Shown piece by piece: positions 44,023 through 63,542 of a stretch of 64,000 bases of DNA. Source of the stretch: a virus. The notes below the pieces were generated by a model, which did no database searches, had not been told where the DNA came from, and saw only the letters and a list, made by a program, of their open reading frames with translations. The stretch is from positions 10,770 to 74,769 of IMG/VR virus record IMGVR_UViG_3300010413_000016; one strand, 5' to 3'. A program made the translations under genes and the position numbers. Numbering within the stretch: the stretch's first letter is position 1; every line of letters starts with the position of its first letter.

Positions 44023-44520
44023 TCACTCGACATTATCGTGTATTAAGTGAACCAGCTCCACAAACTCTTTATAGCTCATATTCTGTTTCATTTTATTTAC
44101 TCTCCACTGACATAACACTACATTACCTTCAATATACCCCAAAGTGCTGTCAACGCGATCTAACGATAACGTCGTTGAGCTTTCGCCACATGTTGACATC
44201 GGTTCGCCAGTGTAAAAACACTTTCCGTCTTGAGCATCCCACATCTTTTCTATTTCTTCCAATGTTATGTTGAACTCAAGTCCTTTATATTTGGCTCGAT
44301 TCTTTGCAGAGACAAAACGATATTGAATTGGATTGTCCTTTACCCATTGGTTAAAATTCTTCTTTGCGTTAGTAATATACACTTGTTTATCTTCTTCAGA
44401 TAATTGATGATACCGAGCCCTTGATTTTTTCTTGAGACATTCTTTACACGTCGATTTGCGTACGCCATAGAATTTTGATGGATCAGTCTCGCCACACGTG
44501 TTACATAGATGATTAGCCAT
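44023..44520 (-). CDS. HNH / His-Me finger endonuclease with N-terminal zinc finger
   Basis: CxxC...CxxC; CFYTG...SLDRVDS..GY..GNVVLC...VNxMK. Confidence 0.8.
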   Translation of the reverse strand: MANHLCNTCGETDPSKFYGVRKSTCKECLKKKSRARYHQLSEEDKQVYITNAKKNFNQWVKDNPIQYRFVSAKNRAKYKGLEFNITLEEIEKMWDAQDGKCFYTGEPMSTCGESSTTLSLDRVDSTLGYIEGNVVLCQWRVNKMKQNMSYKEFVELVHLIHDNVE

Positions 44521-44880
44521 GGTTGGTTCCTTTTTGTATTATATAGGGAAACAAAAACTCATGGTTATTTTTGTGCCCTCCCATTTTCAGAACGATTTTT
44601 TTTTTTTAAAAATTTTTTCGCACCACGATTTTTCGATGGCGGGATATTTTCCGGGGGGGGGAGCAGAAACTCTAATCTAAGATCCATAATATTAACGGGA
44701 GAGATGATTGTAGAAAATGTATGGGAACGTGTGGCGGAAATTGGCGGGCGATGTTTTCAGGGTGAAAAATTTGGTATACGTTGAACCTAGCAAAGAAGGG
44801 TATAATCGCCCATCGGTGTTCTTAGGGACCTGGCCTCTCGATTTTACCAGATTCTATTTTCAAAGTCAACTGTTGACTTT
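44521..44880. other. non-coding strand-switch region with homopolymer tracts
   Basis: T12 at 44596-44607, G9 at 44653-44661, palindrome AAAGTCAAC-T-GTTGACTTT at 44862-44880. Confidence 0.7.
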
Positions 44881-45048
44881 TAGTTAGTGGGAGGAGCCGA
44901 GTCTCCTTCCACTCAGATCATAGCATTCATGTTGTCTTCTTCATCAAGATGGTGTACGACTTGCTACGTGACTTGTCTCCTCCCTATCAACTGTCGTGAT
45001 TAGATTGATTGAAAGATATATTATCTCTCACCCTAACTATGAAGTCAA

Positions 45049-45147
45049 CTAGTACCCCATACCGACTGCAGCCACAGATGCTGCCATCAAGGTGATGATG
45101 GGAGTAACGATAACAACTGCCACAATGATGATCACTTTCTGTTTCAT
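45049..45147 (-). CDS. 32-aa single-TM peptide (MKQKVIIIV...GMGY)
   Basis: Own promoter and SD; paralog at 53059-53157; below the ORF-track size cutoff. Confidence 0.7.
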   Translation of the reverse strand: MKQKVIIIVAVVIVTPIITLMAASVAAVGMGY

Positions 45148-45211
45148 CTCATCTCTCTTTTCTCTCAACTGTTGAAGCTATTATAGCTCCAACAGTTGAA
45201 GAAGTCAACTG

Positions 45212-45547
45212 TTATTTTAATTCATACTTGCTAAACATATTGACGTCAATATCAGATGACAGAATTTGTTCAACTTCTTGTTTGATCTTGTTCATTCGTT
45301 TTGTGACAATGTCAACACTCACAGAACGTGATTGATTGATATAGTAATCACTAGATTCAATATAGTTTAAATTGAATTGTTCTGTGAATTTGACGTCTGC
45401 ATCATGAAAGTCAGACACAGTTGAATCTTCGTTCATAACAAAGATAATGAAGTCGTCATCAACACTACTGATGATACAGTTGTCTATGTTTGTATCAACT
45501 TCATGTTCAATAAACAGATAATTGAACGATATGAATACTTTTTTCAT
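45212..45547 (-). CDS. early hypothetical protein
   Basis: Cassette ORF with own promoter; start corrected. Confidence 0.6.
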   Translation of the reverse strand: MKKVFISFNYLFIEHEVDTNIDNCIISSVDDDFIIFVMNEDSTVSDFHDADVKFTEQFNLNYIESSDYYINQSRSVSVDIVTKRMNKIKQEVEQILSSDIDVNMFSKYELK

Positions 45548-45649
45548 GTGATCTCTCAGTTCTCTCAACTCAGAGATACTATCTCATGATTCATGATTGA
45601 AGACAACAGATGGAGAGATTCAGATAATGAATCTCTCCATCAACTGAAC

Positions 45650-46141
45650 TTATTTGCTCAGTTTCTTTTTGATGTTGTAGTGATATGTAGATGCACCTGC
45701 TTGAGTCATGTCAAGTTCTGCCATGAAACGAGTGATAACATCTTTTCTTGCAGGATGTTGACCATCAACTATCATACTGATGTATATTTCTTCTGCAATT
45801 TGTGACTTTGATACTTTCTTTTCTTTTTGTACTTTGACCGTTTCTACTTTCGGCTTTGTATCTTTGATCTTACGAACTTTCTTCTGTTCAGTTATCTTTT
45901 CTTGTTGTGCAATAAATTCAACAATTTCCTTTTCAGTTTCAGTAACTGCATCTTCAACACTCAACATCTTACTGTCAACATGTGACATCATCCATTCTTG
46001 TTTGTATTCTTCTTTCCATTGTTTGAATGGAATATAATCTTCAGAAGGAAATGATGCGGCTGCTTTCTCTTCTTTATACAGAGTCAGAAGTGAAATGTTA
46101 TCCGGAAATTGTGATTCGATTTGATTGATTACGTGTTGCAT
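45650..46141 (-). CDS. early protein with C-terminal RKxxIxRF...AGASTY domain; paralog of 49152
   Basis: Sequence similarity within the window. Confidence 0.8.
   Translation of the reverse strand: MQHVINQIESQFPDNISLLTLYKEEKAAASFPSEDYIPFKQWKEEYKQEWMMSHVDSKMLSVEDAVTETEKEIVEFIAQQEKITEQKKVRKIKDTKPKVETVKVQKEKKVSKSQIAEEIYISMIVDGQHPARKDVITRFMAELDMTQAGASTYHYNIKKKLSK
45681..45778. repeat. 98-bp perfect repeat, identical to 50277-50374
   Basis: Identical DNA encoding SMIVDGQHPARKDVITRFMAELDMTQAGASTY. Confidence 0.95.
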
Positions 46142-46472
46142 GTTGTTTTCCTCTCTCAATTGTTGAATCTATTATCTGTCCAGTTGGTCACTTTGTCAAC
46201 ATGTTTCTGAAATTAATTTCAATCGATTCATGTTTGTGTGCCAATGAGGACACCATCTAATAAAGAGAGGCTGAGGGCAACAATTAATTTGAGCCGATAT
46301 TTGATCGGCTGATAAGGAGATGTGATTAGAGTTCCAACTTGATGGTTGGAGATGATGGGTGGATCAATTTGATCACTTCAGATCCACCCATCATATAATA
46401 GGTGGAGGCTACAAGTAGCCTCCTGAGTCGTCCGCCGGGAGAGATGAGAGAGAGGAGTGGCGGACGACTCTG

Positions 46473-46792
46473 TTAACTTGCTAACTTCACTGTTGCCATC
46501 CCAAGTCCGTAACCGAACGCGAATATTGCGATCGAGAGGCCGAGAACAGCTACCTTGGCGTTGTTACCAAGTGCCCCAAAGAATAGGACGATGAGACCTA
46601 GCACGAAGGCGACAACCCAGAGGATAACCGCCATAACTATCATCATGGTTTAGTCCTGCCGTTCCATACTTGTAGAGCAACTCCCGTGAAGAAGCCAGAC
46701 AAACAGACTAGAGTAGAGATGACATCGTTGGTGGCAATGTAGGCGCCCATTCCGATAATCACACCAAGTAATCCAAGTACAATTGCTTTCAT
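46473..46792 (-). CDS. two small membrane-protein genes (46643-46792, 46473-46643)
   Basis: Hydrophobic two-TM peptides of about 50 aa; coupled. Confidence 0.55.
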
Positions 46793-46851
46793 CCCATCAT
46801 TCCACTTTTGTCTCTCAACCGATGACAGTATCATCCCACTTTTATGTGGTG

Positions 46852-47402
46852 TCAAGCGGCCCTTTTCAGCTCAGGATGGTTAGTTGCCATCCAACGAACA
46901 AGGTCAGGAATGTTGTTGCTGAACTCTTCGAACGGAACGGTCGTGTGGCTGAAGATTAGACCACCGCTGAGGAAGTCAATGTCGATCGTATTGTTTGCGT
47001 AGTTGATACAAGCTTTGCAGATCGAGTGTGCCTTGTTACGATCAGCTACATGAATGTACGTGACCTTCGCTGCAGGATAGTTGTTCGCCAAGTAGTCGTA
47101 CATGTTGCCATTTGCTTCAACTTGCATGTTAGTGTCCTCTCAATTGTTAGAGGAATTATAGCTCAGCCACTCAAAAGAGTCAACAGCTATTTGGATATTG
47201 CCCACATCGACGTGAGCGCATACAATGACCACCCAAGCCCTTCGAAGAAGACAAACACAATCAGTGCTGATTTCAGTGGAATCAGCCACTTAACGTGATA
47301 GTCGCCATACGCTTCGATCTTGTTGTGATCTTCAAACAAAATGAATCTGGCATATTCTATCAAGATCAATATGATCAAGAACTCAAAATGGATGGCGTTC
47401 AT
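46852..47402 (-). CDS. two early hypothetical genes (46852-47127; 47187-47402, membrane)
   Basis: SD-led cassette ORFs. Confidence 0.6.
47139..47189 (-). repeat. 51-bp promoter repeat identical to 53499-53549
   Basis: ctcaattgttagaggaattatagctcagccactcaaaagagtcaacagcta. Confidence 0.9.
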
Positions 47403-47434
47403 GTTTTCTTCTCCTTATTGGAGGAGTTATTCTC

Positions 47435-47842
47435 CTACAACACACTTTCAGCATCAACAGCTGAAAGTGGAAAACTTCCGACATAACGAGCTCGATTTTT
47501 ACGGAAGACAGCTTGATATTTGCCAATGTTCACGTCTTCGTGAGCATCAATTTGGTACACTTTAACAGAAAAGTTACTTTCATCCATTGCTTGACGAACA
47601 CGTGATGATATTGTCCAGTCTTTAAGTTGTTGTTTGGAGCCAAATCCAAAGAACCAATTACGCCGATCATCATATTCGATGCTATCCCACATGAGGAAAT
47701 GGTCATCTTCTGGCACTGGGTGTTTTGGGTCGGCGATCGAAGATACATATTCAAGGTCACCAAATGATACTGACCGATTGGTGGAATTGCGGTTGTACAT
47801 TCCTGTACCCTTGGCATGTTCGACGCGTAGAACTGTAATCAT
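47435..47842 (-). CDS. early phage protein, possible ADP-ribosyltransferase-like fold
   Basis: LRVEH...HPxPxxD...FGFGS..QL..W...QAVF; start corrected. Confidence 0.5.
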   Translation of the reverse strand: MITVLRVEHAKGTGMYNRNSTNRSVSFGDLEYVSSIADPKHPVPEDDHFLMWDSIEYDDRRNWFFGFGSKQQLKDWTISSRVRQAMDESNFSVKVYQIDAHEDVNIGKYQAVFRKNRARYVGSFPLSAVDAESVL

Positions 47843-47905
47843 TTGTGATCTCCTCTCAATTGATGGGGCCATTATAGCCCCACCCTGAGTTGAAGTCAAC
47901 GGGAG

Positions 47906-48503
47906 TCACAGACGTTTCAGTTCAGACTCCAAACGATTTCGAAAATTCTTATATTGGTCGGTTTCGCTGTACTTCATGTAGAAGTCATGGTATGCCGGGC
48001 GAGGAGGTTGGGACAACAACTTCTCCCTGCCGATTGTGATGTCGAATTTCATCGTTTTCCACGAGCTTTGAAATTCATACGATACGCTACCAAACACCTC
48101 GATTCCTTTCAGAATCATAAGGGAGCCAGTGTTAGCCCAGTTGCGTTCTTGTTCGGACTCAAATCCACACTGGCTAATCAGGTCCATCAAATCTTTCAGG
48201 ATACGGGTTTGCATTGACATGGCGATCTCCTCTCATTTAATAGAGATATTATAGCTCCATCCTATGATGAAGTCAACTGATTTTGTAAATCAGCAGGTCA
48301 GATTCTTCCCCAGCCTCACAGGCAAAGATTTCATCTACTTGTCCGAAGGTTGAGTATTTGAGGTAGGCTTCTTGTTTTTCATGTGAGTCTTCAATCTCAT
48401 AAAAGATGAAGGCTGCTTGCTGATGGGTATCAGCCTCAATCACCCGGTGACTAGATTCGCGAGTGTCATAACGATCGAACCAAATTACTAAGAACTGTGC
48501 CAT
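47906..48503 (-). CDS. two early hypothetical genes (47906-48220, 48273-48503)
   Basis: Each has its own promoter and SD. Confidence 0.65.
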
Positions 48504-48572
48504 CTCTCTTCAATTCTCTCTTGTGTTAATTGATGAGACCAGCATAGCACATCCTCGTCTTAGAGTCAACGA

Positions 48573-49091
48573 TTATTTGAATTCAAACGGACCATTAAAC
48601 TTCTGCTTGTTGATAGTAACAGAAGTGATAGAAGAGATTTCGAAAGTTCGGATGATGACTTTGTTTTCCAGCCCACCCTGACTCGATTCTGGCTTACTTT
48701 CAGGAATACCTTCGATTTGATCTTTGGGAGTTACGACACCATCTACTTCGTAATGAGTAGTTCCCTTGTTGAGGAAGATGACTTCGAGGTAGTGTTTCTC
48801 TTTATATTCTACGAAAGGAATTCCTTCCAGCCGAGTTCCCCAAGTACGAGGACCAACAGTAAACGACTCAGGATCTTTACCTTCTTTACCGAGACGACGT
48901 TTCACCATCTCACCGTAGCCACTTTTCTCTTTGTTCTGAAAGACCATGACATTAGAGCCAACGGTTACCTTCCGAACGCGACCTTGCAGAAGATTATGAC
49001 GACCACCACGAAGCTTGACGTTAGTGGAAGTGTCAATGCTGATGAAAGTTGCGCCATTAACAGCATCCATGATTTTGCGGATATTGTTCAT
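48573..49091 (-). CDS. conserved early phage protein
   Basis: Promoter cassette; start corrected to MNNIRK. Confidence 0.75.
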   Translation of the reverse strand: MNNIRKIMDAVNGATFISIDTSTNVKLRGGRHNLLQGRVRKVTVGSNVMVFQNKEKSGYGEMVKRRLGKEGKDPESFTVGPRTWGTRLEGIPFVEYKEKHYLEVIFLNKGTTHYEVDGVVTPKDQIEGIPESKPESSQGGLENKVIIRTFEISSITSVTINKQKFNGPFEFK

Positions 49092-49098
49092 TCGTGAT

Positions 49099-49149
49099 CT
49101 CCTCTCAATTGATGGGGCCATTATAGCCCCATCCTGAGTTGAAGTCAAC
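49099..49149 (-). repeat. 51-bp promoter-hairpin-SD repeat, identical to 51745-51795; one mismatch to 47850-47900
   Basis: ctcctctcaattgatggggccattatagccccatcctgagttgaagtcaac. Confidence 0.95.
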
Positions 49150-49151
49150 CG

Positions 49152-49631
49152 TTAGCTGAGTTTCTTTTTGATATTGTATTGATAAGTAGAAGCACCAGCT
49201 ACTGACATGTTCAGTTCATTCATGAAACGTTGTACTACTTCCTTTCTTGCAGGATGGTTACCATTGACCATCATTTCCTGATAGACCTTCAAAGCACGTT
49301 CAGCTTTGGTTGGAACTTTCTCTTTCTTGACTTTGACCTTAGGAGTACTTTTGATCTTCCGTACAGTTACCTTTTTCTCAGGTTTTGCCTGTTGTTGCTT
49401 TTGATCGTTTTCCATTTCTTCTTCAGACAACTTGACAGCAGTCTCAGCATCAACCAATTTTGAAGTTGAGTGAGTCTCCAACCATTCTACTTTGTATGAC
49501 GCTCTCCAATCCTGAAAGGAAGGAAACGGATCTGAAGGAAAATCCATCTGCTCTTTCTCAATCTTGTATAGAGCAAGCAGGTTGATGTTGTTGGGGAATT
49601 TAGTTTCGATTGATTTGATTTGCTTCGCCAT
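49152..49631 (-). CDS. early protein with RKxxVxRF...AGASTY domain; paralog of 45650
   Basis: Sequence similarity; tandem promoters upstream. Confidence 0.8.
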   Translation of the reverse strand: MAKQIKSIETKFPNNINLLALYKIEKEQMDFPSDPFPSFQDWRASYKVEWLETHSTSKLVDAETAVKLSEEEMENDQKQQQAKPEKKVTVRKIKSTPKVKVKKEKVPTKAERALKVYQEMMVNGNHPARKEVVQRFMNELNMSVAGASTYQYNIKKKLS

Positions 49632-49789
49632 GCGAAATCCTCTCTCTCGTTTGTTAACTGTTGAAGCTATTATCTTCTAAGTTGGGTCTCATGTCGACAA
49701 ACTTTTCAATTTATTTTTCGTTGAAACACTTGCTGCATGTGATAGAGAGACTATCCAATAAGATGGGCCTGTTGTCAACAGGAACAGCG

Positions 49790-49833
49790 AAAAAAATGGG
49801 TGGCAGCAAAATGAGAGAGGAGCTGCCACCCAT
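49790..49833 (-). terminator. intrinsic terminator with CU-rich loop
   Basis: 12-bp stem, loop UCCUCUCUCAUUUU, U tail on the minus strand. Confidence 0.8.
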
Positions 49834-49924
49834 AAGGGCAAGTTATCCGCCCTCAACATGTATTAATAATGCAACCGACAAAGAGAGTCCACAGGTTATG
49901 GGTTGAAATGCTTTGTCGGTTGCC

Positions 49925-50185
49925 TTAAACTGGTTTCTTGGCGACCTGCTCCATTATATAATCGCGCAGATCGTCTTTCATTTCTTCTTCACAATCATTG
50001 AAGTCGAACTTTTCAGTTCCATCAATGTTTGCAGCAAAAACGTTTGCCACACGTTGTGAAGTTTCATCAGAGAACCATTTGACGTTCAGACCAAGCTCAT
50101 CAGCGAGTTCTTGACGTGTGTACGTTTGTTCTGCATTGCCGAACTGATCAGCAGGAACATGAAACTGCGCATTTGGATCTGACAT
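49925..50185 (-). CDS. early acidic hypothetical protein
   Basis: Own promoter and SD. Confidence 0.65.
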   Translation of the reverse strand: MSDPNAQFHVPADQFGNAEQTYTRQELADELGLNVKWFSDETSQRVANVFAANIDGTEKFDFNDCEEEMKDDLRDYIMEQVAKKPV

Positions 50186-50245
50186 CTAACTTCTCCTCTC
50201 ATTGGATGGAGCCATTATCGCTCCATCCTGAGTTGGTGTCAACAG

Positions 50246-50680
50246 TTATTCAGAACACTCTTTCTTGCAAGTATTTTGATATGTAGATGCACCTGCTTGA
50301 GTCATGTCAAGTTCTGCCATGAAACGAGTGATAACATCTTTTCTTGCAGGATGTTGACCATCAACTATCATACTTTGGTAGATGGCAACTGCTTTTTCCT
50401 TTTTACTTGTACCATCTGTTGACTTTGTATGAGGTTTACGTTTGGTAGAGGTAGAAGTTGTCACTTCTTTCTCTTTTTTAGGAAGTGCAATTCTCCATTC
50501 TTTTGGCTCAGGAATTTCTTTGAGTGTGCCATCATCATGAGGAATCTTTACAGTAGACCCATTAGGAGAAATCTCGATAATGGCATGCACTGCAGAGTAG
50601 TCAACTACTTTGCCATTATGAGTGAACTCACCATTCTCATCTTCACCCTTCCACTCAACAAACTGACCTTTCGTAAACAT
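50246..50680 (-). CDS. early protein: SH3-like N-terminus + AGASTY domain
   Basis: FTKGQFVEW...GKVV N-terminus; C-terminus identical in DNA to that of 45650. Confidence 0.75.
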   Translation of the reverse strand: MFTKGQFVEWKGEDENGEFTHNGKVVDYSAVHAIIEISPNGSTVKIPHDDGTLKEIPEPKEWRIALPKKEKEVTTSTSTKRKPHTKSTDGTSKKEKAVAIYQSMIVDGQHPARKDVITRFMAELDMTQAGASTYQNTCKKECSE

Positions 50681-50896
50681 TTTTGATTCTCCTCTCTCAA
50701 CTGATGAGTCCATTATAGATCCACCGGTTGAAGAAGTCAACACAAATCATGAAATTTTTCTGTTGTTCCCAACTTCAACTATGTTGAAGGTGTGTTGATG
50801 TGAGTGATCAGATCTCATAACTGAATACTATCTTCGTGATCAAATGTAGTGATAGAAGTGGATATATGCCACACTTCTAGCCTCTATTTTCTACCA

Positions 50897-51196
50897 TCAG
50901 TGGTGGAAATCATCATCAAAGAACGCGAACAGATACACCCCTTCTTCCTCGAGATTGTCAGAGTTAAATGCTAATCCCTTTTTGTGGTCACCTTTGTACT
51001 CAACGACAAAGTCTCCCAGCTCTGGATAGTCAACTTTGGGATGCCCAGCTTCTTGCATCAGTTCTACCAATTTGGCTGTGTCTCGTTCACTGATGCATGC
51101 ATCGCCTGTGGACAAACTGAATGCATCGATATCAATTACTTGAGTAACGATATCGAACATCTGTTGTGCCCACTCATTCAGAATCATGCCAGACAT
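50897..51196 (-). CDS. early acidic hypothetical protein
   Basis: Own promoter and SD. Confidence 0.6.
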   Translation of the reverse strand: MSGMILNEWAQQMFDIVTQVIDIDAFSLSTGDACISERDTAKLVELMQEAGHPKVDYPELGDFVVEYKGDHKKGLAFNSDNLEEEGVYLFAFFDDDFHH

Positions 51197-51289
51197 CTCA
51201 TATCTCCTTCCTCAACTGATGATGCTACTATCCCACATCATCACAAGAAGATCAACAACATCCCACTACCATCCCACTTTCGTGGAACA

Positions 51290-51435
51290 AAAAAAGAGGC
51301 CGACATGTGCCAGCCTCGAAAAGGAGGACGCTTGTGGTCCTCAGGGGGAAGAAGTGGTCGGCGGCCAAGAGAGAGGAGAGAGGGCGGCCGCCAACCGGGT
51401 AAACTTTCAAGCTACATCGTTCTCCTCAACCGATG
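51290..51435 (-). ncRNA. candidate small RNA cassette (promoter, SD-ATG-TAG, hairpins, terminator)
   Basis: TTGCAT-17-TATAGT at 51441-51469; start-stop at 51412-51417; CU-loop hairpin 51356-51396; terminator about 51290-51317. Confidence 0.6.
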
Positions 51436-51458
51436 ACTCTACTATACTTTATTCCGTG

Positions 51459-53045
51459 TTAGGATGCAACAGGCTCCACCATGAAAGTTGTCAGCCAGTC
51501 GCATACATCTTCGTGGGTGAGCAGCTCAATACCTTCCTCACCATCGCGAACGTACCAACTACATTCGTGGGCACATAGAGTGCTTGTTCCAACAATGTCA
51601 GTTACACTAAACTCGTTGGCTACCTCGATGAACTGAGGAATCGTCAGTGATGAGCCATCTGAGTCGTTGTAGGCAATATCGCCATCAAGAGTATACTTGT
51701 GTCCATTGCCGAGTGTCGCTGCTCCATAAATGTGCATTTGCTTTCTCCTCTCAATTGATGGGGCCATTATAGCCCCATCCTGAGTTGAAGTCAACGTTAC
51801 ATTGACCAATAGGTCTCTGAAGCAGGAGAGCATGAGTTAGGAGTGTTGATCGGTTCCTGATACTCTTTGCCGCTCATCAGGTTGGTGCGAGTAACCATCT
51901 TCTCGATGTTCTCAGCAAAGTCACGACTGTCAGCAATCGCGTAGTCGTCCTTCGTAGCACCATCGTGGAGCTTACCTTTGTTGTCAAGACGAGTCAGCGC
52001 CGCTTTGGCTGCACGCTCAGTCTTGTAGCTCTCAACCCAACATCCCCACGACTTGCTCGGCGCTTTGAGGATCAGGGTGGTTTCTTTGTGATAGATTACG
52101 TAGCTCATTTTGTTTCTCCTCTCTCAAGTGTTGAAGTAATTATAGCCCAACACCTGAGAGAAGTCAACGGTTAGAGTTTCAACTCTTCTTTCAGCGCATC
52201 ATAGATTGCCTGGCGAAATTCTCGAGTCTCTTCGGAGTACATGTCCTTGATATTCTCGTCGATCCAGTCGGCGATCTCTTCACCATCTTTGATGCCTCCA
52301 TCACTGGCAAGCCACTCGTACGGACTTTCGATTGGGTTCTCGTAGTGGGCCATCATCAGACAGGCAATGTGTTTGGCTGCCTTTGTCATTGTGTTCATTT
52401 ATATCTCCTCATTTGATGAGGAGCGTCGCTCCTCATCAAACTGTTGACAACGTTTACTTTTCGCTGTTTTCGAGATGCTCTTTGTAGTACTCGATGGCAG
52501 CTTCAACGCGATCGTCACCATCGATGCCGTAGATCTTGTAGTCGCCCATCGTGGTGGTGTTCTCATCATTGATATACTCGAACCCACCATAGTACTCGAG
52601 TGAGCGGATATTGTGTGCCTTGGTGATGATCAGCTCGTCATTAAGGTCAACGAACACGTGACCAGCACGTGAGTCAAGGCCGATCTTGTCAGCACGAACG
52701 TATGGAAGATCCTCAATGACGTTGCCAAGCATCTCGTTTGCTTCGTCGATTACGTTCAGTAGTTCCATTGCTTCTCTCCTTTCGTGATTGATGGGGCCAT
52801 TATAGCCCCATCCTGAATTGAAGTCAACGTTCGATGTACTCACCGTTGAGCCAAGCCTGCATTACCTCTACAGTTTGACGTACTTGATCTTCGGTCATTT
52901 GGATGGAAGCAGGAGAACGGTCTCCTGGTACGATACCTTGGTTCAGTTGAAGACAACGACCTGGTGTGATACCACGGAATGAAGTCAACATTACTTCTTG
53001 AACGTTTCCAGTTTCATCGATTGCTGATTTCAGATTGATGCTCAT
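51459..53045 (-). CDS. five early hypothetical genes (51459-51737, 51797-52108, 52171-52398, 52454-52768, 52824-53045)
   Basis: SD-led cassette ORFs; 51797 has a NLMSG...TP..CSPASETYWSM motif seen in T4-type phages. Confidence 0.7.
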
Positions 53046-53058
53046 GATGCATCCTCCC

Positions 53059-53157
53059 TTAGTACCCCATTCCAGTGGCAGTGAACAGGGCGAGTCCAGC
53101 CAGGATGGTCGGAGTGGTGACTACAACTGCTGCGATGATGATTACTTCCTCTTTCAT
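53059..53157 (-). CDS. 32-aa single-TM peptide (MKEEVIIIA...GMGY)
   Basis: Own promoter and GAGAGGAG SD; paralog of 45049. Confidence 0.7.
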   Translation of the reverse strand: MKEEVIIIAAVVVTTPTILAGLALFTATGMGY

Positions 53158-53207
53158 GATGATCTCCTCTCACTATGAGTACATTATTGCTCAACCACAC
53201 CAAGAAG

Positions 53208-55309
53208 TCAACAGTGGTTGGGATCTTGGCCTGAGAGAACACACATGGCAATTGCCGTTGTCTTATTAACGCGTTTGGCATACGATATGAGGTTCTCGAC
53301 AGGAATCGATTCCTCGATATCATCGCTAACCTGCTTGTGGCACATCCCTTCAAGGGAAAGGGAGATCGAGTTGCTGGTGTAGCCATTCTCATGGCAAACA
53401 GCTTTGTCATCACCATACGCCCACGCAACAGCAAGAACGTAGAAGGCAGCGAACATCAGAGTAATCGGTAACAGGTGCTTTTTCATTTCATCTTTCTCCT
53501 CAATTGTTAGAGGAATTATAGCTCAGCCACTCAAAAGAGTCAACAGCTAATTAATCTCAATGTCGAATTCGTGAGCTGCTGAACGGTAGAATGTGTACAC
53601 GTCGCTGGTGCCGACCCCCTCACCTTTAGGAAAGCTCTCAAGACTGCAACAGACTGAGTACATCCGAGTAGATACATCATCATTGTGGATGTCAAGACCA
53701 AGATGGGCAGCGCAGCGATGCATTACACTGAGAACCAGATCAGTCGTATTGAAAGCATTTGCGTTATACTTGCTCATTGTCTTCCCTCTCTCAGATGTCA
53801 GGGTAAGTATAGCTCATCCTTGAGCTAAAGTCAACTACACGTTGAAGTAGACTGCAGTGCGACGACCATTAATATCGACGTATGCATAATCGGCAGTTAC
53901 GTGCTCCCTTACATCTTCTTCGTTGTTCCAATCGATGTTGGCGTTGATCTTGTTGATAGCAAGCTTGACCGCACGGTCGTTGGTTGTCTCATACGCATCG
54001 TAACCAACGTCTTTGTTCGCCTGTTCGATGCCATAGTGGCTTGCAATATAGTAGTTACCTTGGCAACCACACATGCAGCCAACCTTGCCGTTGTATGACT
54101 GCTTGACGTCTTCAAATTTGATCATCTTGGTGCTCTCCTCTCAAATGGTGGCCCTATTATAGGCCACCATTCAGTTGAAGTCAACAGTTGCAAACAGATT
54201 CAGAACTTACTAAACTCATCCGAGTATCGTAAATCCTGGAACGTTGGAAGATTACTACCGTCCCGTCGTTCAAGGTATGCCGCATACTGGCCAGTCCGCT
54301 TTTCTTGGTGCCTTGCCTTGTGACTCTTATTGAGGTATCGTCCCCAGCCCCGTTTCCTGTCCGCTTCACGGACCTCACGAGTCTGTCCACATCCACAAGC
54401 ACACTTTATTGTCACCATCTTTGCCATCGTAGAGTCCTCACCCGTCAATCTCATCAATGTTCATATCGTTACCACTCCTGCTATGCGAAAGTGCCTAGCT
54501 CAACTTTCCAGTCTGTATGTGAAAATCCACTTGGGAAAATGCGTTCGATCTCTGCAGTAATCTCTTTTGCAGAACTACTAACGTTAATGTACATTCCATC
54601 TCCAGGGCGCCTTACTTCTTCTCCTCGCTGGAAGATTGGGGATTTGCGAACCTTCTCATTGCTCATCGGATTCTGACTGAACATGTATCCTGGAATAAAC
54701 ACTTTGAAGTTGGTAGCTCCTGTAGAAGTAAGAAACGATTTGCTCATCACATGTCTCTCTTTGTGTTAACTGCAATTCCACTATAATCCCATTATAGTCC
54801 CACTTTCGTTAGATGTCAACGTCACTTTACATCAGCTGGACGGAAAGAGAGGGTAGCAGACTGCTACCCTCTCTGGAAACGTGTCAATCTTTGTGTTTTA
54901 AAAAAGCCGTTAGTTGTGTCGTGTCTGTGGTTTGCGTTAAGTGTTACATGTCTACTCACCTCCTAAGAGTTATTTTATTAGGTTCGTTCGTGTGTAAACT
55001 TTGATAAGAATTCCATTCTCCATCAACGGGAGAGATGGGTCAACGTTCTCTCCTTGCGTCCTGATAACTCTGAAGAGTACGAAGACGGGAGAGTAGGGTG
55101 TTAGTAGTATTTCGGAACTGGATGCCAAGTTGTTCCATCATATGGACAGATCGCTCATAAAAGGTCAACAGGCTACGAAGCTCATCGTCGGAGATTGCGT
55201 CACCACGCAGGAAAGCTTCGTTTGCTTCTTTGTTGAGAGACGTCATAACCATCGTGGCATCCTTTGTAAGAATTAGGGATGTCTGATCGGCCCCACTCCA
55301 ATACGCCAT
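53208..55309 (-). CDS. six early hypothetical genes (53208-53486 exported, 53547-53777, 53835-54125, 54200-54427 Cys-rich, 54481-54750, 55040-55309)
   Basis: Cassette organisation; CMCGC and CACGC motifs in two of them. Confidence 0.6.
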
Positions 55310-55423
55310 CAGACTCTCTGAGCCGTTCTACTCAGCCTTACCTCTAGGGATAACTATCCCATACAACTCCTGGCAGATCAACGCAAAAGTTCCACCAATA
55401 GTGGAACTTTTGCCGGGCCAGGT

Positions 55424-55990
55424 TTACGCTTTGGCTTCGGTGGACTCAGTCTGCTCAGCTTTGGCAGCCTTCTCGGCCTCCTTGGCAGCTTTGGCTTCGG
55501 CACGTTCCTTCGCTTTCGCTTCCTTCTCGGCAGCTTTGGCAGCCTTCTCGGCCTCCTTGGCAGCCAGAGCTTCGGCCTTTTCGGTTTCGGCCTTGACCTT
55601 CGCTTCAACAGCGGCCTTTTCAGCGGCAACGATCGCTTTGGTGTCGATGGAGGAAGCTGCCTTGATCTTGCCGTTCAGACCGTCAACGTAGTTCTTGACG
55701 GCAACAGCCGGATCGGTGGCATCGTTCGGGCCAGGCTTCAGGACGTGGGAGGTAACAACGGACAACTCGTTGTCCTTGGTCTCCTTCACGGAGTAAACGG
55801 TGACCAGGTCGCCAGACTCTTTCATGGCGTTGCGGTGCTGTTGGTAGATGGTCATCGCGTAGGCGGAACCGATGTCGAACTTCTCCATCAGAGCGTTGGC
55901 GGCGTCTTTGCGGGAAACCTTACCGGCCATTTTGTCCAGTTCGGCAAAGGCTTGCTGACGTACGGATTGTTTGTCGGTGTTACGTGACAT
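55424..55990 (-). CDS. early protein: AGASTY-like N-domain + A/K/E-rich repeats
   Basis: RKDAANALMEKFDIGSAYAMTIY; AAKEAEKAAKA repeats; biased codon usage; tandem promoters. Confidence 0.8.
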   Translation of the reverse strand: MSRNTDKQSVRQQAFAELDKMAGKVSRKDAANALMEKFDIGSAYAMTIYQQHRNAMKESGDLVTVYSVKETKDNELSVVTSHVLKPGPNDATDPAVAVKNYVDGLNGKIKAASSIDTKAIVAAEKAAVEAKVKAETEKAEALAAKEAEKAAKAAEKEAKAKERAEAKAAKEAEKAAKAEQTESTEAKA

Positions 55991-56139
55991 ATTTTGTTAC
56001 TCCTGTTACAGTTTAAGTTTGGGGTTGTTTACAGGGCTTATTATGCCCGATCTTCGCTCCCAAGTCAACTCCCAATTCAATTCAACTTTGCTGGCGTTTC
56101 CTTAGGGTGAAAATACTTTAACTCAGATACTGACTGAAG

Positions 56140-56430
56140 TCAACATCTGAAATGATTTTTAATTGCCTCAGAAATCAGAGAGTTAGCGGAAGCTCCCAAT
56201 GATTCGATATAAGCGTTAACTGCCTTCGTTGAGTTGATCGGCAATACGCCCTCCATCAGGAATTCCACCGCGTGGGAACTGGTATAGTTGTGGTGGAGAT
56301 CGTCAGCCACCATTGTTGCGATGAATTTGAACGTAGCGTTCCGGACATCCTTGTAGCTGTCGCAACCTTCAACGTTGTCTGCGATCCACTGACTGATATC
56401 GTCGGCGTTGGCAAAGTTCTCATGTGACAT
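56140..56430 (-). CDS. early hypothetical protein
   Basis: Own promoter and SD; start corrected. Confidence 0.6.
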   Translation of the reverse strand: MSHENFANADDISQWIADNVEGCDSYKDVRNATFKFIATMVADDLHHNYTSSHAVEFLMEGVLPINSTKAVNAYIESLGASANSLISEAIKNHFRC

Positions 56431-56484
56431 AGTCTTCTCCTCAAATGACGTGACCACTATAGCTTACGCCATCATATGGGTCAA

Positions 56485-57273
56485 CTAGAGGCTAACGTGA
56501 AAGTTAACAGTAGCACCCTTGTCCTCGAGTGTGGGTTGGATTGTCATAAACCATTTTGACTCTGGTTCAAAGAATGTATCGTACATCACGAGTCCGATGA
56601 AATTCCCCAGCGCCGCTCCAGCAAACTGGTCACTGAAGTGGTGGAGGCCTGATTCAATTCTGCCGTATGATGAGACAGCTGCCAAGTAATATGATCCAGC
56701 AATTGTCGAGTACTTTGCAACATCATTCATGTTGCTGTACTCTAGATTTCGTCGGATGAGGGCAGCTCGAGTAAACGCTGGTGTGGAGTGTCCGGATGGG
56801 AACGCTTCATACTCAACGTGACGAATTGTTCGATCAGGCTCTCGTCGACGGATGGCAACCTTCAGCTCGTTTGTCACCCAGTTGGACGTGTCGATGATTA
56901 CAACTTCACCAAGTATGCCCTTAGCCTTCGACGATATGCTTCCATTTGTAATTAGTGTAGATGCTATCCACGCATCAGTCAGCACATTCAGAGCATTATC
57001 ACTTGTCATAGCAGCATCGTGCTTGCTGCCATACACCCAGTTGTCTCTGAGAGCCGCTTGCGTCCACTCTTCATCTTTACCGGATGCTAGTGCAACAGCT
57101 GCCCCTGCTGCTGGAATCCACGTTCCAGGATCTTTCAAAGCTCGAACAGACGCATGCTTGAACTTCTCCCACGTTGGTGTAAGGTGGATACTCCCTCCCC
57201 AGTTTGTTTTGTGAGGAGAGGAAGCACAGCCAGTTAGCAAAACAATGATACTGATCAAGATGACTCTTAGCAT
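56485..57273 (-). CDS. PAP2-family phosphatase lipoprotein
   Basis: Lipobox LLTGC; K...RREP, FPSGH and GRIxxGLHHFSD motifs. Confidence 0.85.
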   Translation of the reverse strand: MLRVILISIIVLLTGCASSPHKTNWGGSIHLTPTWEKFKHASVRALKDPGTWIPAAGAAVALASGKDEEWTQAALRDNWVYGSKHDAAMTSDNALNVLTDAWIASTLITNGSISSKAKGILGEVVIIDTSNWVTNELKVAIRRREPDRTIRHVEYEAFPSGHSTPAFTRAALIRRNLEYSNMNDVAKYSTIAGSYYLAAVSSYGRIESGLHHFSDQFAGAALGNFIGLVMYDTFFEPESKWFMTIQPTLEDKGATVNFHVSL

Positions 57274-57473
57274 ATGTACATCCCTGTCAGATGGAATTAA
57301 GCGTGTTTTGCTTGCTCAAGGAGCTCAAGTTGGCGATACAACTCATCAAGATCAAAATTAAGTTCTTCGATCTCACCTTCGTTGTTCTCACCAGCTTCAC
57401 TCCGTGCAAACGCATCCTCAAGAGCTTCCTCAGTCTGGCGAATTTTATCTCTTGTGATTTTCTCGCTGTCCAT

Positions 57474-58016
57474 TTACCACGCCCCTTTTGCAAAGTTCTT
57501 TTTACAGTTGGCAACATAAGTAGAAGCACCAGCTGGAGTCATACCAATCTCGTCAACAAAACGTTGAATGGCATCTTTGCGAGAAGGGAACTTTCCGTTG
57601 TTCTCATCGACCATCTTTTTATACAATTCGATGGCCATTTCCTTTTTGGCACCCTTCTTTTTCTTGGGATTACCAGCTGCATCCAACTTGACGGGTTTAT
57701 CCTCTCGACTTCCCAACATCCAGGGATTTTTCTTGAGGTGAGTGTTGGCCTTTTCGGTTGCCAGTTCGAAAAGCTCGTCCATGTCAACGGTACCATTTTT
57801 CAAGTTCTGACGAACAGTCTCTTGAACGAGATACAGATAGTGCCAACGGATCGTTTCGTCGGTAGCGTCAGTATCATGACCAGACAACTCTTTGATGCGA
57901 TCACGATACAGTTCAGGAAGAACTTCACCTTCCACCTCATTCAGGTACTTGACTGCAGCCGTGAAGCTGTGAGTAGGAATGTCGTAATTCTGTAGAGTTT
58001 CGATTGCCTGATTCAT
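57474..58016 (-). CDS. early protein with C-terminal AGASTY domain
   Basis: PSRKDAIQRFVDEIGMTPAGASTY; start corrected. Confidence 0.8.
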   Translation of the reverse strand: MNQAIETLQNYDIPTHSFTAAVKYLNEVEGEVLPELYRDRIKELSGHDTDATDETIRWHYLYLVQETVRQNLKNGTVDMDELFELATEKANTHLKKNPWMLGSREDKPVKLDAAGNPKKKKGAKKEMAIELYKKMVDENNGKFPSRKDAIQRFVDEIGMTPAGASTYVANCKKNFAKGAW

Positions 58017-58088
58017 GATCTGTCTCCTCTCAATTGTTGAAGCTATTATCGCTCCGTCTTGAGTTGAAGTCAACTTATTTCTCGAAAG

Positions 58089-60373
58089 TTACCGTAGTTC
58101 CTTAATCCTTGCAATCAACTTATTGAGATTGTCTGCTGTATCCTGATAGTAGACAACGCCAGTCAACTGATCGGGTGTAGTGGGATTATCGTAAAGAGCC
58201 TGACATAGCTGGAACCCAGTCTGAGACCCAACCTGAACGTGCAAATGAGACCCGAGAATTGTTATCTCGCCATCAGCCATATCATCCTCATACCCAGAGA
58301 TGACAGCAGGGATATGGTTGGTTGTCAGGATATCCAACATTTGTTGTTCGTTCATAATCTGTCTCCTCTCAACTGATGAGTCTAGTATAGCAGCATCGTT
58401 CAAAGATGTCGACAATTATTTTGTGAACACCTCAAGATCAATGTCGTCGTTGATGCTGAACTCAAACTCACCAACATGTTCACGACCCTGTTGAGTCATC
58501 ACCCACACCACCCCATTTTCACATAATATAATGTTCAGTACTGTTTCACCATTGTACTTAATATGGGCATTTTCGGCAGCATACGTGACAGAGTCCTCAT
58601 CATCATAATCTTTGACAAGGATCCCATCTTCGATCAGTTGTTGTAATTTACCCATTTTTGCCTCTCAACAGCAATCTCATTCAGTTGACGATGATACTTT
58701 GTAAGACGACTATACCCTTTATCGTCCTTCTTTGTCCACCTTTCAATCTGCCATGCAGCAAGATAGCCGTTCTTTTTCCAGAACTTGGCAGTGAGAGAAC
58801 CACTTCGAGCATCAGCTCCTGTAAAGCCGATGCCGTTGTGAACTTCAGTGGTGAGGTGGGTTTGTTCTTCGGCAGTCTGCCGTGCAAGAAGACTGGAGAG
58901 AGCACGACCAACAACAGCCTCCACGTACTTCGGATTCGGATTGTCCAGCATTTGCTGAAGTGAATCTTTGGTGACGATCTTTGCTTGTTTGGCCATGTCT
59001 CTCTCCTCTCAAGTGATGGGGCCATCATAGCCCCATCGTAAGTTAAGGTCAACTCATTCAACAGTCACATCGTAATCGAAGTCAGGATGGCGCGACAAAG
59101 AGTAGAACTTGAAATAATGCCCAAGCTCATGGCATTTGTGAAAGAGTAATCTCCAACACCATTCTCCGAGATCATCCGCCACTGGTTCTTCAATATTGAA
59201 CGAGCCGACGGTAATGAACTTCAGAGGAGGAACCGTTACAGCTGGGTCATATATCTGAACACGGCATTTCTTCGTGGTTGTTTCCATATAGCATCTCCTC
59301 TCAAATAATAGAGATATTATTGCACATCCATGTGTAAGAGTCAACTATAATTACGTCTAAATGCCCACCCTTTTCCACCCTGCCATGTACCAGCGTGAAC
59401 ACCATTCTTATAGTAGAGTGTCATTTTGACTGGAGCTCCATCACCGTACGCTTCTTCAGTATATGGGCACGCAGTGATACCTTCAGCACCAATAGATTCA
59501 ACAAGACGTTGTTCGAATGCGCCTTTAGTCATTCGTTGCGTAAATAGCAAATCTGACATAGTAGTTCTCCTCAATTGATGGGGCTATAATAGCCCCATCA
59601 AAAGAGAAAGTCAATGGAAATTACTCACCCATCGCCTGTTTCAGGAGATCGTCAATCTCCTTAGTTTTGTCGATATCAGGTCCTGTGCAGAGATACGGTT
59701 CCAGATGAGGGACAACCTTGACGATTGACTCTACCGTACGACAGGTACGGATAGTGTTGAACGTTTCATCTGCCAAACGAAATGCATCGTTGGTGATGTT
59801 GGTATCTGTTTGGTTCAACATCTTTTGGGTAGTACAGTCGGTTGGAATGTAAGCATCCAGGTCAACATGAAGGTAATCTTCCTGACCATCATCTTCACTC
59901 CAATCGCACGCAGATGTTTTATCTTCATCATCGGAGATGACGATTTGAACGAAAGGAAACGGAAGCTTGAAAGTGAAGTTGTCAACCTTCATCAGTTCGT
60001 CCCACATGCCCGCCAACTTCCGAATAACATGGGTCCTGATGTCGGTTTCGTCACCGAAGTAACCGAACTTCGGTTGAAAAAATCCAGGATCCTTCACACC
60101 TTCGACAGTTTTGAATTTTTTTGCACTCACGGTGTCATCACCGTGCCAACTCAGCTGCAAGGCCACACGGCGAATAGGACCATCAGCAGCCAAAAAAGAA
60201 TCGACCATCGCGCGACACTGATCGGAGTAGGTTTTATCAAACACCTCCCCCGCAACCTCGTTCCAATGAGAGATAACAGTTTCGTGGAGGTTGTTGAGGC
60301 GATTCTCTACCACGTCGGCAACAAAAGTGGCCACCGCATAACGCTTATCATTCATGTTAACAGTACTGGCCAT
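58089..60373 (-). CDS. six early hypothetical genes (58089-58355, 58416-58655, 58634-58996, 59054-59287, 59341-59559, 59621-60373)
   Basis: SD-led cassette ORFs, most with their own promoter. Confidence 0.65.
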
Positions 60374-60448
60374 GATATTTCTCTCCGTTGTTGTTTAAGG
60401 ACAGGTTCATTATAGTTTAGGACACAGTTGAAGACAACACCAGAAAAC

Positions 60449-60477
60449 AAAAAGCCCCTCACGAGGAGGGGCTTTTT
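60449..60477. terminator. bidirectional intrinsic terminator
   Basis: AAAAAGCCCCTC...GAGGGGCTTTTT. Confidence 0.85.
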
Positions 60478-60492
60478 GGAGTGGTTGCTGCC

Positions 60493-60744
60493 TTACTTGG
60501 AGGCAGTGGCAGGGTTGGCCTTCGGCGTGGGCATCTCCCAACCTTTCTTGCCAGAAACGATGTTCTGGTAATAGGTGGCAGCGCCGTTGCTAGTCAGACC
60601 CGTCTTCGCGACCATCTCGTCGATGATCTCTTTGCGAGTGGCCGGAGTCTTGCGACGAGTCATGCGGGCAACGATGCCGATGGCCTGCTTCTTGGCAGAG
60701 GTGGGCTTCTTGGTGCTGGTGGCCTTGGTGGTTTTGGTAGCCAT
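60493..60744 (-). CDS. small basic stand-alone AGASTY-domain protein with histone-like K/T/A N-tail
   Basis: PATRKEIIDEMVAKTGLTSNGAATYY; three stacked promoters upstream. Confidence 0.8.
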   Translation of the reverse strand: MATKTTKATSTKKPTSAKKQAIGIVARMTRRKTPATRKEIIDEMVAKTGLTSNGAATYYQNIVSGKKGWEMPTPKANPATASK

Positions 60745-60987
60745 GTTGTATCACTCCTATGTGATTGACGTTTTGTTTAACTTCAGGTTCATGTTAACCT
60801 AATTTCAAACTTCAGTCAACACGTTTTGTTAACTTTTTGTTCCAGGCTTAGGCTTGTCCTGTTACCGCTTAACTGAGACCCACTATACTAAATGTCTGCT
60901 TTGGGGTCAACACTTGTTTCAAACTTCCGTTGGCGTCTTGCTTAACCAATGACTCCACCTTATATTAAAAGGGGGATGAAGTCAACA

Positions 60988-61209
60988 CTACTCAGGATCT
61001 TTATCGTCGCGGCCGAGCAGTTCGTTGAGGCACTTGCGATAATGAGCGAGATCACCAACATCTGCCCAACTGATCGACTTGGGGGAATCCTCCAGACGAT
61101 GTTCACACAGACTAATCAACTCTGCAACATCGTTAAGTTGTTGACGGATAACGTTAAGATTCTTACGAGCGCGTTGTTGAGCGGTTTCGCGAAAAATTGT
61201 CTTAGCCAT
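60988..61209 (-). CDS. early hypothetical protein
   Basis: Last leftward cassette; start corrected. Confidence 0.65.
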   Translation of the reverse strand: MAKTIFRETAQQRARKNLNVIRQQLNDVAELISLCEHRLEDSPKSISWADVGDLAHYRKCLNELLGRDDKDPE

Positions 61210-61335
61210 GGTCGTTCTCCTCTGTAACTGAAGCACACAATAGATGAGTTGCAGCAAGAAGTCAACCACATTTTGACGTTGCCTTTTTAAATAAGATTCG
61301 CGACAATATGTTCTCCATTTGAGAGGAGATAAATC

Positions 61336-62023: not shown

Positions 62024-62052
62024 TTGACTCCGTAATCCCGTTAGGATATAAT
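62024..62052 (+). promoter_or_regulatory. strong sigma70 promoter
   Basis: TTGACT-17-TATAAT. Confidence 0.85.
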
Positions 62053-62072
62053 GGGGTCATCAGTTAGAAAAC

Positions 62073-62087
62073 GCTCTTTAACAATTT
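62073..62087 (+). promoter_or_regulatory. rrn-type boxA antitermination element
   Basis: GCTCTTTAACAATTT matches the proteobacterial rRNA-leader boxA; about 15 nt after the predicted TSS. Confidence 0.75.
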
Positions 62088-62089
62088 GT

Positions 62090-62995: not shown

Positions 62996-63014
62996 GGATC
63001 TAATTCAACTCTAG

Positions 63015-63043
63015 TTGATTTCACAAATCAACTAGGGTACAAT
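63015..63043 (+). promoter_or_regulatory. sigma70 promoter overlapped by an inverted repeat
   Basis: TTGATT-17-TACAAT; CTAGTTGATTT/AAATCAACTAG at 63011-63035. Confidence 0.7.
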
Positions 63044-63049
63044 AGTTTT

Positions 63050-63509: not shown

Positions 63510-63542
63510 CCCCACCTGTTAGTGTCGCAGGTGGGGTTTTTT
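63510..63542 (+). terminator. intrinsic terminator closing the ncRNA cluster
   Basis: CCCCACCTG/CAGGTGGGG stem followed by T6. Confidence 0.85.

Follow-up and report, generated by a model that had tools for sequence, protein, structure and literature searches.

A PeSL-type promoter cassette array in a putative jumbo-like phage, with hairpins around the -10 box that may act in read-through RNA

The window analyzed here, a 64-kb stretch of a 74.8-kb linear IMG/VR virus record (IMGVR_UViG_3300010413_000016; completeness rating 23%), carries an early-gene array of about 41 small open reading frames (ORFs) and 40 sigma70-like promoter units (44841..61265, minus strand), delineated by ORF curation and by a promoter scan against shuffled sequences. 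It appears to be a genuine array of promoter-early stem-loop (PeSL) cassettes, the basic architecture of which is already known; new are the jumbo-phage-like lineage and the missing AT-rich element upstream of the promoter. In 17 of the 40 units the -10 box is enclosed by a hairpin that is more stable than expected by chance. We consider it probable (roughly 0.6) that these are PeSL-type composite cassettes in which the -10 hairpin acts as RNA in read-through transcripts and insulates neighboring cassettes from each other.

Organization of the Promoter Cassettes

The array starts at a divergent point near 61300 and runs down to about 44850, with genes and promoters on the minus strand. It contains 41 curated ORFs with a size between 32 and 262 aa. 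The cassette consists of the stop codon of the upstream gene, GTTGACT, 17 nt, TATAAT, the leader CAnCAnTTGAGAGGAG, and the ATG of the next gene. We found 40 intergenic units of the form TTGAC(T/A)-17-TAnnnT, with the 60% consensus GTTGACTTC-n11-GnGCTATAAT-n5-CAnCAnTTGAGA, followed at its 3' side by a purine-rich Shine-Dalgarno (SD) sequence of the GAGAGGAG type, 5–10 nt before the ATG. The 62-nt cassette is present in 17 in-register copies at an identity of at least 60%. An independent consensus scan returned 67 promoter-like sites vs. 29.9 +/- 4.7 in shuffles, of which 14 match 11–12 of the 12 positions.

Of the 41 genes, about 30 are preceded by a unit of their own at 52–66 nt from the ATG, and the remaining genes are co-transcribed with a neighbor. 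In 26 units, the -35 and the ATG are 54–61 nt apart. In 25 units, the stop codon of the upstream gene lies between -4 and +15 nt from the -35, and in six of these it is the TGA inside TTGAC. Near-identical cassettes (98%) precede unrelated genes, as seen for units 53543 and 47183.

Hairpins Around the -10 Box

Each unit was folded over its spacer, the -10 hexamer, and 20 nt, and was compared with a control in which the two flanks were shuffled separately while the hexamer was kept fixed. Units are named after the higher coordinate of their range on the minus strand. The hairpin enclosing the -10 beats this control (p < 0.05) in 17 of the 40 units, where two would be expected, with a mean z of -2.4, and 19 promoter-like sites elsewhere in the contig have no such hairpin. 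The -10 hairpin is real and specific to the array, in under half of its units. An initial annotation of this DNA had counted about 40 cassettes with the -10 in a loop: the 40 promoter units are there, but 23 of them have no significant stem, including the perfect-consensus promoters 53543, 47183, and 46199. The inverted repeats that it quoted are all in place (49111, 51757, 52790, 59015, 59577, 50204, 54144, 45165, 51217, 52412).

The -10 is enclosed by 8–17 bp in about 12–14 units (59614, 59052, 54184, 52827, 52450, 52167, 51794, 51256, 50242, 49148, 47899, 45208). One stem forms a repeat family, GATGGGGC-N7-GCCCCATC, with copies at 49111, 51757, 52790, 59015, and 59577 and a one-mismatch copy at 47862 (six matches vs. 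none in 100 shuffles). The hairpin GATGGGGC/GCCCCATC is found in the cassettes 58997..59052 (around TATGAT; z -4.75), 52769..52827 (where the upstream stop is the TGA inside TTGACT), 51738..51794 (with an outer CUCAG/UUGAG helix), and 49092..49148, while the cassette 47843..47899 carries GGTGGGGC/GCCCCATC with a G-U pair on the sense strand. In the cassette 59560..59614 the hairpin is TTGATGGGGCTA/TAGCCCCATCAA around TATTAT (E -26.9, z -7.0, where E is the folding energy). The units of class I fold into helices of 10 + 5 + 2 bp.

About eight unrelated stems are individually significant (AATGGTGGCC, TCAACTGTTGGAGC, GGTGTTG, TGATGATG, TTTGATGAGGAGC, GGATGGAGC, GGAGC, and TTAGGTT), corresponding to units 54184, 45208, 52167, 51256, 52450, 50242, 58073, and 60819. 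The cassette 45148..45208 contains a near-perfect palindrome of 16–17 bp centered on TATAAT, TCAACTGTTGGAGCTA/TAGCTTCAACAGTTGA, with one G-U pair (E -24.7, z -7.6). The stem of 52109..52167 has 16 bp, including three G-U pairs, a 14-nt loop with TATAAT, and an outer TCTCTCA/TGAGAGA helix at the SD (E -23.0, z -6.95). The hairpin AATGGTGGCC/GGCCACCATT around TATAAT in 54126..54184 is shifted in register by one (E -21.4, z -5.9), and GGATGGAGC/GCTCCATCC around GATAAT in 50186..50242 shows a compensatory change from G-C to A-T with respect to the GATGGGGC family (z -5.9). The stem TGATGATG/CATCATCA surrounds GATAGT in 51197..51256 (z -3.6), and 58017..58073 combines a short stem, GGAGC/GCTTC with one G-U, with an outer CTCAA/TTGAG helix (z -2.9). 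Weaker hairpins are present in 46793..46855 (short stem GATGA/TCATC overlapping GATACT; z -2.5), 50681..50740 (long imperfect stem with three G-T and two A-C mismatches; z -2.2), and 47403..47457 (stem AGGAG/CTCCT at a weak promoter, TTGATG..GAGAAT, that overlaps the 3' end of the upstream ORF; z -2.1).

The cassette 52399..52450 has a perfect 13-bp hairpin, TTTGATGAGGAGC/GCTCCTCATCAAA, with the loop GAC (E -21.2, z -6.5). The inverted repeat that the initial annotation listed at 52412 is thus present, but its loop holds no credible -10 (hexamer GACGCT). A copy of the SD, UGAGGAG, is part of the 5' arm of this unit, and an anti-SD, CUCCUCA, that adjoins the SD is part of the 3' arm. Pairing of this anti-SD with the real SD, 5 nt downstream, would be an alternative, giving two mutually exclusive folds that would resemble a small translational switch.

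Unit 60819 (60745..60819) is the third of three tandem promoters before the gene 60744-60493, and its stem TTAGGTT/AACCTGA overlaps TAACAT (z -5.1). The three tandem promoter-like sites (60985, 60910, 60819) are contained in a 243-nt leader (60745-60987, minus strand) that precedes the gene for a lysine-rich protein of 83 aa, and a canonical terminator is located after this gene.

The proposal that structure rather than sequence is selected stands in part. It is backed by several unrelated stems, about 8–10 independent stem sequences being present in the array, but much of the pairing is conserved sequence, since six copies belong to the one GATGGGGC/GCCCCATC family. The initial annotation overstated the covariation, which is modest. 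In an alignment with a fixed register, 63.7% of the cells are paired vs. 61.1% when shuffled (12/500), the covariation score is 0.243 vs. 0.208 (13/500), and a single pair clearly alternates between G-C and A-U. There is thus a slight excess over shuffles, but the signal in a common register is weak. RNAalifold found almost no consensus among 14 hairpin units because the stems occupy different registers.

Strand Bias and Upstream Context

In 31 of the 40 units, folding favors the sense strand over the antisense strand. Among the 17 hairpin units, the gap between sense and antisense amounts to -3.8 kcal/mol vs. -1.1 kcal/mol in composition-matched shuffles, which is exceeded in 17/17 (p = 1.5e-5). 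G-U pairs account for 27/235 on the sense strand and 5/192 on the antisense strand of these units. When G-T and A-C were scored alike, the well-supported stems contained 10 G-T and two A-C mismatches, vs. eight and 13, respectively, in stems at chance level. Such a G-U bias points to sense-strand RNA or to single-stranded DNA of the non-template strand, whereas neither a duplex operator nor a symmetric cruciform accounts for it.

The hairpins also follow their upstream context. They are significant at 14 of the 27 promoters that abut an upstream ORF vs. three of the 13 that are first, tandem, or located behind a terminator or a structured non-coding gap (Mann-Whitney p = 0.006; 0.025 with the GATGGGGC family collapsed). 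The first promoter of the array (61210..61265), with no transcription from upstream, has no hairpin (z +0.6), and none is found at the promoter directly 3' of a canonical terminator (60374..60437; E 0.0). Of two promoters after structured non-coding gaps, one has no hairpin (46142..46199; z +1.0) and the other no significant one (49632..49697; z -0.5). The consensus cassettes 53487..53543 and 47128..47183, which lack an enclosing hairpin, are twins with 98% identity. Unit 52450 keeps its perfect 13-bp stem with GACGCT in place of a -10, so a hairpin can persist without a promoter.

Stems that appear to be selected on the sense strand and relative to upstream transcription favor a role as RNA over a cruciform or an operator. 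Of the two mechanisms offered in the initial annotation, the hairpin in read-through RNA is the one favored by the G-U strand bias, the upstream context, and unit 52450; the cruciform is disfavored.

None of the promoter hairpins was called by a terminator scan, and at most two T are found in the 8 nt after the stem. The same scan calls three canonical terminators within the array, among them a 13-bp stem with a T run (60448..60478, minus strand) and a 9-bp stem with T7 (51296..51317, minus strand). A 14-bp hairpin, GATGGAGAGATTCA/TGAATCTCTCCATC, whose tail is rich in T, immediately precedes promoter 45606 (45609..45641, minus strand). The promoter hairpins share with intrinsic terminators a GC-rich stem directly after a gene, but differ from them by the absence of a U tract.

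A Role in Read-Through Transcripts

If the spacing is the usual one, the promoter of a cassette would initiate at the A of CATC, 7 nt after the -10 and inside the 3' arm. A transcript starting there would lack the 5' arm, so that only RNA reading through from upstream could fold the hairpin. A cassette extends from the upstream stop (often the TGA in TTGACT) over a near-consensus host sigma70 promoter and its leader, CAnCAnTTGAGAGGAG, as far as the ATG of the following gene. Where a hairpin is present, which is so for fewer than half of the cassettes, the spacer is complementary to the discriminator and start region, which places the -10 in the loop. In our proposed mechanism, formed solely in RNA that is read through from the upstream gene, the hairpin would attenuate, process, or end-protect this RNA. 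Neighboring cassettes would thereby be insulated, with each small gene relying mainly on its own promoter for expression. The repeated cassettes likely serve, in addition, as recombination substrates that shuffle the small genes, as proposed for PeSLs.

Several points weigh against this proposal. Intrinsic termination is doubtful because the hairpins have no U tract and none was called terminator-like. The occlusion of the SD in read-through RNA is small: its predicted unpaired probability is 0.41, vs. 0.47 in a control with shuffled upstream sequence (p = 0.03). No significant hairpin is found in 23 of the 40 units, formal covariation is modest, and the counts are not fully independent because the hairpin units are paralogous copies. 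The G-T bias would equally suit a hairpin on the non-template strand as single-stranded DNA. The sole PeSL stem-loop tested by experiment (PMC2839356), that of RB49 PeSL211/210, is of the spacer type, followed by TATACT.

If the hairpins insulate the cassettes, this would account for the exchange of dozens of tiny genes, each as a self-contained unit of expression; if true, such insulation bears on the evolution of accessory-gene regions in phages. The strand-biased G-U pairs, the dependence on an upstream ORF, and the hairpin of unit 52450 add evidence, at the level of the sequence, that a stem with the -10 in its loop is read as sense-strand RNA and not as a DNA cruciform.

On reading the sequence, we noticed three GC-rich hairpins in long non-coding gaps of the array (46425-46470, 49798-49831, and 51354-51396, minus strand). 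Their minus-strand loops contain pyrimidine runs (CUCCUCUCUC-like) complementary to the GAGAGGAG Shine-Dalgarno sequence of the early genes, and two of them lie downstream of promoter-like sites of their own (49778, 51469). These hairpins could be small RNAs that bind or mimic early ribosome-binding sites. A more specific and rather improbable scenario combines them with the promoter hairpins. The latter would be an RNA device without U tract that is specific to read-through, either an attenuator based on sigma70 pausing at the embedded TATAAT or an RNase III-type site that recreates the 5' end of the own start. Together with the three anti-SD hairpins, they would form a circuit that insulates the early genes and later shuts them off, in cassettes that would have spread or re-arisen outside the T4-like phages.

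Comparison With PeSLs and Other Promoter Hairpins

PeSLs are repeated cassettes that begin at the stop codon of the upstream gene, within AT-rich sequence, and end with an SD and the next ATG; between these ends are a consensus sigma70 promoter and a stem-loop (PMC2839356; PMC4122927). Their stem-loops fall into five positional subclasses, of which the commonest are located in the spacer separating -35 from -10 or overlap the -10, and G-T pairs are marked in the published figure (PMC2839356). PeSLs cluster in hyperplastic regions of small genes without known function. The precedent named in the initial annotation was correct and is the best classification for the array; the subclass overlapping the -10 has been published, and the same units turn up in our scan of RB49. 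Sigma70 -35 and -10 boxes at about 17 nt, a stem-loop that encloses the -10, a stop codon at the 5' side, and an SD with ATG at the 3' side are all found here. The AT-rich stretch upstream of the -35 is not: the AT content is 62% vs. 55% for the array, and 81% at the PeSLs of RB49 vs. 60% for its genome.

Using the same pipeline, we found many RB49 units with the -10 in a loop (159253, 119937, 114786, 57732, 42355, 39130, 36985, 3201, and 2832) and varying stems (ATGGGAGT/ACTCCCAT, GGGGATAT/ATATCCCC, and GGGTGTAT/ATACACCC). RB49 also holds the spacer type, e.g., TTGACA-GGGGATCggtGATCCCC-TATAAT. The PeSLs of RB49 and phi1 (Arbiol et al., 2010; PMC2839356) separate, as in the array, small genes whose function is unknown, and they have the same parts, namely stop, sigma70 promoter with 17-nt spacer, stem-loop, SD, and ATG. 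They also share the G-T pairs in the stems and, in RB49, a 3' arm that ends with ..CCCATC. RB49 differs in having many spacer-type hairpins (GGGGATC..GATCCCC, then TATAAT), whereas the array has only the type with the -10 in the loop. RB49 is a T4-type phage, whereas the phage studied here has a clamp loader nearest to those of RsoM2USA, XacN1, and PA5oct. The stem-loop of PeSL211/210 reduces the expression of a downstream lacZ (PMC2839356). In our own RB49 scan, this PeSL is of the spacer type, followed by TATACT, so that the direct functional evidence concerns that subclass and not the one with the -10 in the loop.

The PeSL/PmSL cassettes of T4/PST and KVP40/nt-1 (Comeau et al., 2014; PMC4122927) likewise unite a promoter, a stem-loop, and an SD among small variable genes. 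Their stem-loop is located just upstream of a promoter with a degenerate consensus (TTTACW, TTGYVH), in contrast to the near-perfect promoter with its -10 in the loop that is seen here. A full-text search of the literature for PeSL returned papers on T4-like phages only. With the array, the range of such mobile promoter cassettes would reach beyond T4-like coliphages and vibriophages and include an uncultured lineage of jumbo-like phages, for which we found no close relatives in the collections searched.

Other phage hairpins are less similar. The early genes of phage T7 are separated by RNase III processing hairpins of about 20 bp or more, which are not fused to promoters. Like these, the hairpins of the array are intergenic and would separate cistrons where an early transcript reads through, and they have an internal loop but lack a U tract; they are shorter and fused to promoters. 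The virion RNA polymerase of phage N4 uses hairpin promoters, which have no -35 or -10 and are read by the phage polymerase. Promoter function is tied to a small DNA hairpin in both cases, but the units described here have full sigma70 hexamers and many of them have no hairpin.

Alternative Explanations

An unlikely alternative, which nevertheless fares best together with recombination, is translational insulation, in which read-through RNA hides the ribosome-binding site and only transcripts that start within the hairpin are translated. T4 provides the model: the late promoters of e, soc, 49, and I-TevI lie in hairpins by which read-through RNA conceals its ribosome-binding site. As proposed for the array, the own transcript of these T4 genes starts inside the hairpin, without the 5' arm, and upstream transcripts can fold. 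There, the SD and AUG are fully sequestered and the promoters are late ones, whereas here the SD is marginally less accessible and the promoters are of the early sigma70 type. The predicted start inside the 3' arm and an outer helix that pairs the CUCA(G) of the spacer with the U(U)GAG that borders the SD are in line with this possibility. The same is true of the SD unpaired probability, which is 0.64 in the own transcript vs. 0.41 in read-through RNA, the hairpin units being about 0.1–0.3 below their shuffled-upstream value. The drop is mostly generic, however, as the shuffled upstream sequence already gives 0.47; the GGAG core is still largely unpaired, and the strongest unit, 45208, shows no occlusion (0.71 vs. 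0.65). As the main mechanism, SD occlusion was tested and found to be weak.

To a similar, low degree we expect the hairpins to act primarily in recombination at the DNA level, as hotspots of gene shuffling that form hairpins in single-stranded DNA or nuclease-cut cruciforms, with the stems being regenerated by quasi-palindrome template switching. Recombination at the PeSLs of RB49 and phi1, with mini-circles and a crossover mapped to the loop, has been published (PMC2839356). In the window, near-identical cassettes before unrelated genes (53543 and 47183, 98%), an endonuclease VII homolog adjoining the array (44023-44520), and a 121-nt gene segment common to two genes at 92% are consistent with such a role. 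It leaves the G-U bias of the sense strand and the dependence on upstream context unexplained. It is compatible with, and not exclusive of, the proposed action of the hairpins in read-through RNA.

A DNA cruciform, extruded by negative supercoiling so that it presents or pre-melts the -10 and boosts or gates initiation, is improbable. Palindromes centered on the -10 would suit it, and both DNA strands can fold (unit 49148, -9.5/-8.6 kcal/mol; unit 45208, -14.0/-12.1 kcal/mol). Units 45208, 59614, and 52450, with arms of 12–17 bp and 3-nt loops, are the only ones that look cruciform-competent. Most stems have arms of 8–10 bp and loops of 7–14 nt, which extrude poorly by established cruciform energetics, and a G-T mismatch on the sense strand means A-C on the template strand. 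Moreover, 23 of the 40 promoters have no hairpin, including the consensus promoters 53543, 47183, and 46199, the presence of a hairpin follows the upstream context and not the promoter itself, and unit 52450 is a hairpin without a -10.

It is very unlikely that the inverted repeat is the operator of a dimeric phage repressor that covers the -10 and shuts off the early promoters: the outer half-sites GATG/CATC are conserved without covarying in many units and the site overlaps the -10, but other units swap the half-sites and yet stay self-complementary, or shift the register (GTTG/CAAC in 45208 and 52167; AATGGTGGCC in 54184), and the G-T asymmetry is meaningless for a duplex operator. CATC rather looks like a feature of the start site, because it is also present after the -10 of the hairpin-less promoters 62024 and 63544 on the other strand. 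We give equally little credence to the hairpin being a functionless passenger that stems from one recently amplified master cassette and decays neutrally, as might be suggested by the one stem common to six copies, the weak covariation in a fixed register, and the higher frequency of hairpins in the most consensus-like, possibly youngest, cassettes, since the eight or so unrelated stems listed above are individually significant, a compensatory change from G-C to A-T and a strand-biased mismatch spectrum are seen, and the same geometry occurs independently in RB49 with different stems.

The Phage and the Search for Relatives

A completeness of 23% at 74.8 kb implies a genome of about 300 kb or more. 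The genes in the window include tail fibers, rIIA/rIIB, a UvsX-like recombinase, a helicase, a clamp loader, and an endonuclease VII homolog. The closest matches to the clamp loader come from jumbo phages (Ralstonia phage RsoM2USA, 50.6% aa identity; Xanthomonas phage XacN1 and Pseudomonas phage PA5oct, 45%), those of T4-like phages being more distant. The identity of rIIA to anything among the GenBank phages is at most about 32%. The phage appears to be large and jumbo-phage-like, and not a close relative of T4.

A megablast search of the array against GenBank phages gave no match, the exact 20-mer of the cassette has no match in IMG/VR, and three protein-seeded searches for the locus in IMG/VR returned no relative. 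When IMG/VR was scanned for TTGACT-17-TATAAT-(8-20)-TGAGAGGAG, all 47 matches were unrelated singles. The nearest named phages by clamp loader have no such arrays, with no TTGAC-N18-TATAAT site in RsoM2USA and 11 dispersed ones in PA5oct. A scan of metagenomes for TTGACTTCAACT-N11-TATAAT also gave unrelated singles and, among the matches listed, only two short marine contigs were similar (L065, at about 900-935, and L137, 3297-3345). Both carry TTGACT-TCAACTGTTAT(G/A)TCCCT-TATAAT-GAGGGATATAACAG, followed by an SD, with a 13-bp stem and the -10 in the loop, and their copies differ by an A/G change that creates a G-U on the sense strand. Other uncultured phages thus also have units with this geometry.

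Other Features of the Region

The proteins encoded in the array mostly have no PHROG match or match only PHROGs of unknown function, and a search of one early protein against 5.8 billion proteins found no homolog besides itself. A C-terminal module of about 45 aa, ..P(A/S)RK(D/E)(V/A)(I/V)xRF..E(L/I)xM(T/S)xAGASTY..N.KK, recurs in five early proteins whose N-termini are unrelated (genes 45650-46141, 49152-49631, 50246-50680, 57474-58016, and 60493-60744, minus strand), and a stretch of 121 nt is 92% identical between two of the genes. The shared module and stretch point to domain shuffling within the array. The gene at the downstream end of the array (44023-44520, minus strand) encodes the endonuclease VII/HNH-like protein (PHROG 1035, E-value 7e-29), with weaker matches to the Srd and sigma70-decoy families.

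RegB, which could cut GGAG beside the hairpins, has no match in the fragment, a result that is uninformative as the control genomes gave none either. The Rfam covariance models gave no match at E <= 0.1 between 44000 and 64000. This includes the region 62024-63542 (plus strand), in which about 1.5 kb downstream of a consensus promoter hold no convincing ORF. Outside the array, a promoter-like site is located between a tail fiber gene and the next ORF (9950-9995, plus strand), and an imperfect inverted repeat of 11 bp, GGGTTGTGATAT..ATATAACAACCC, overlaps its -10.

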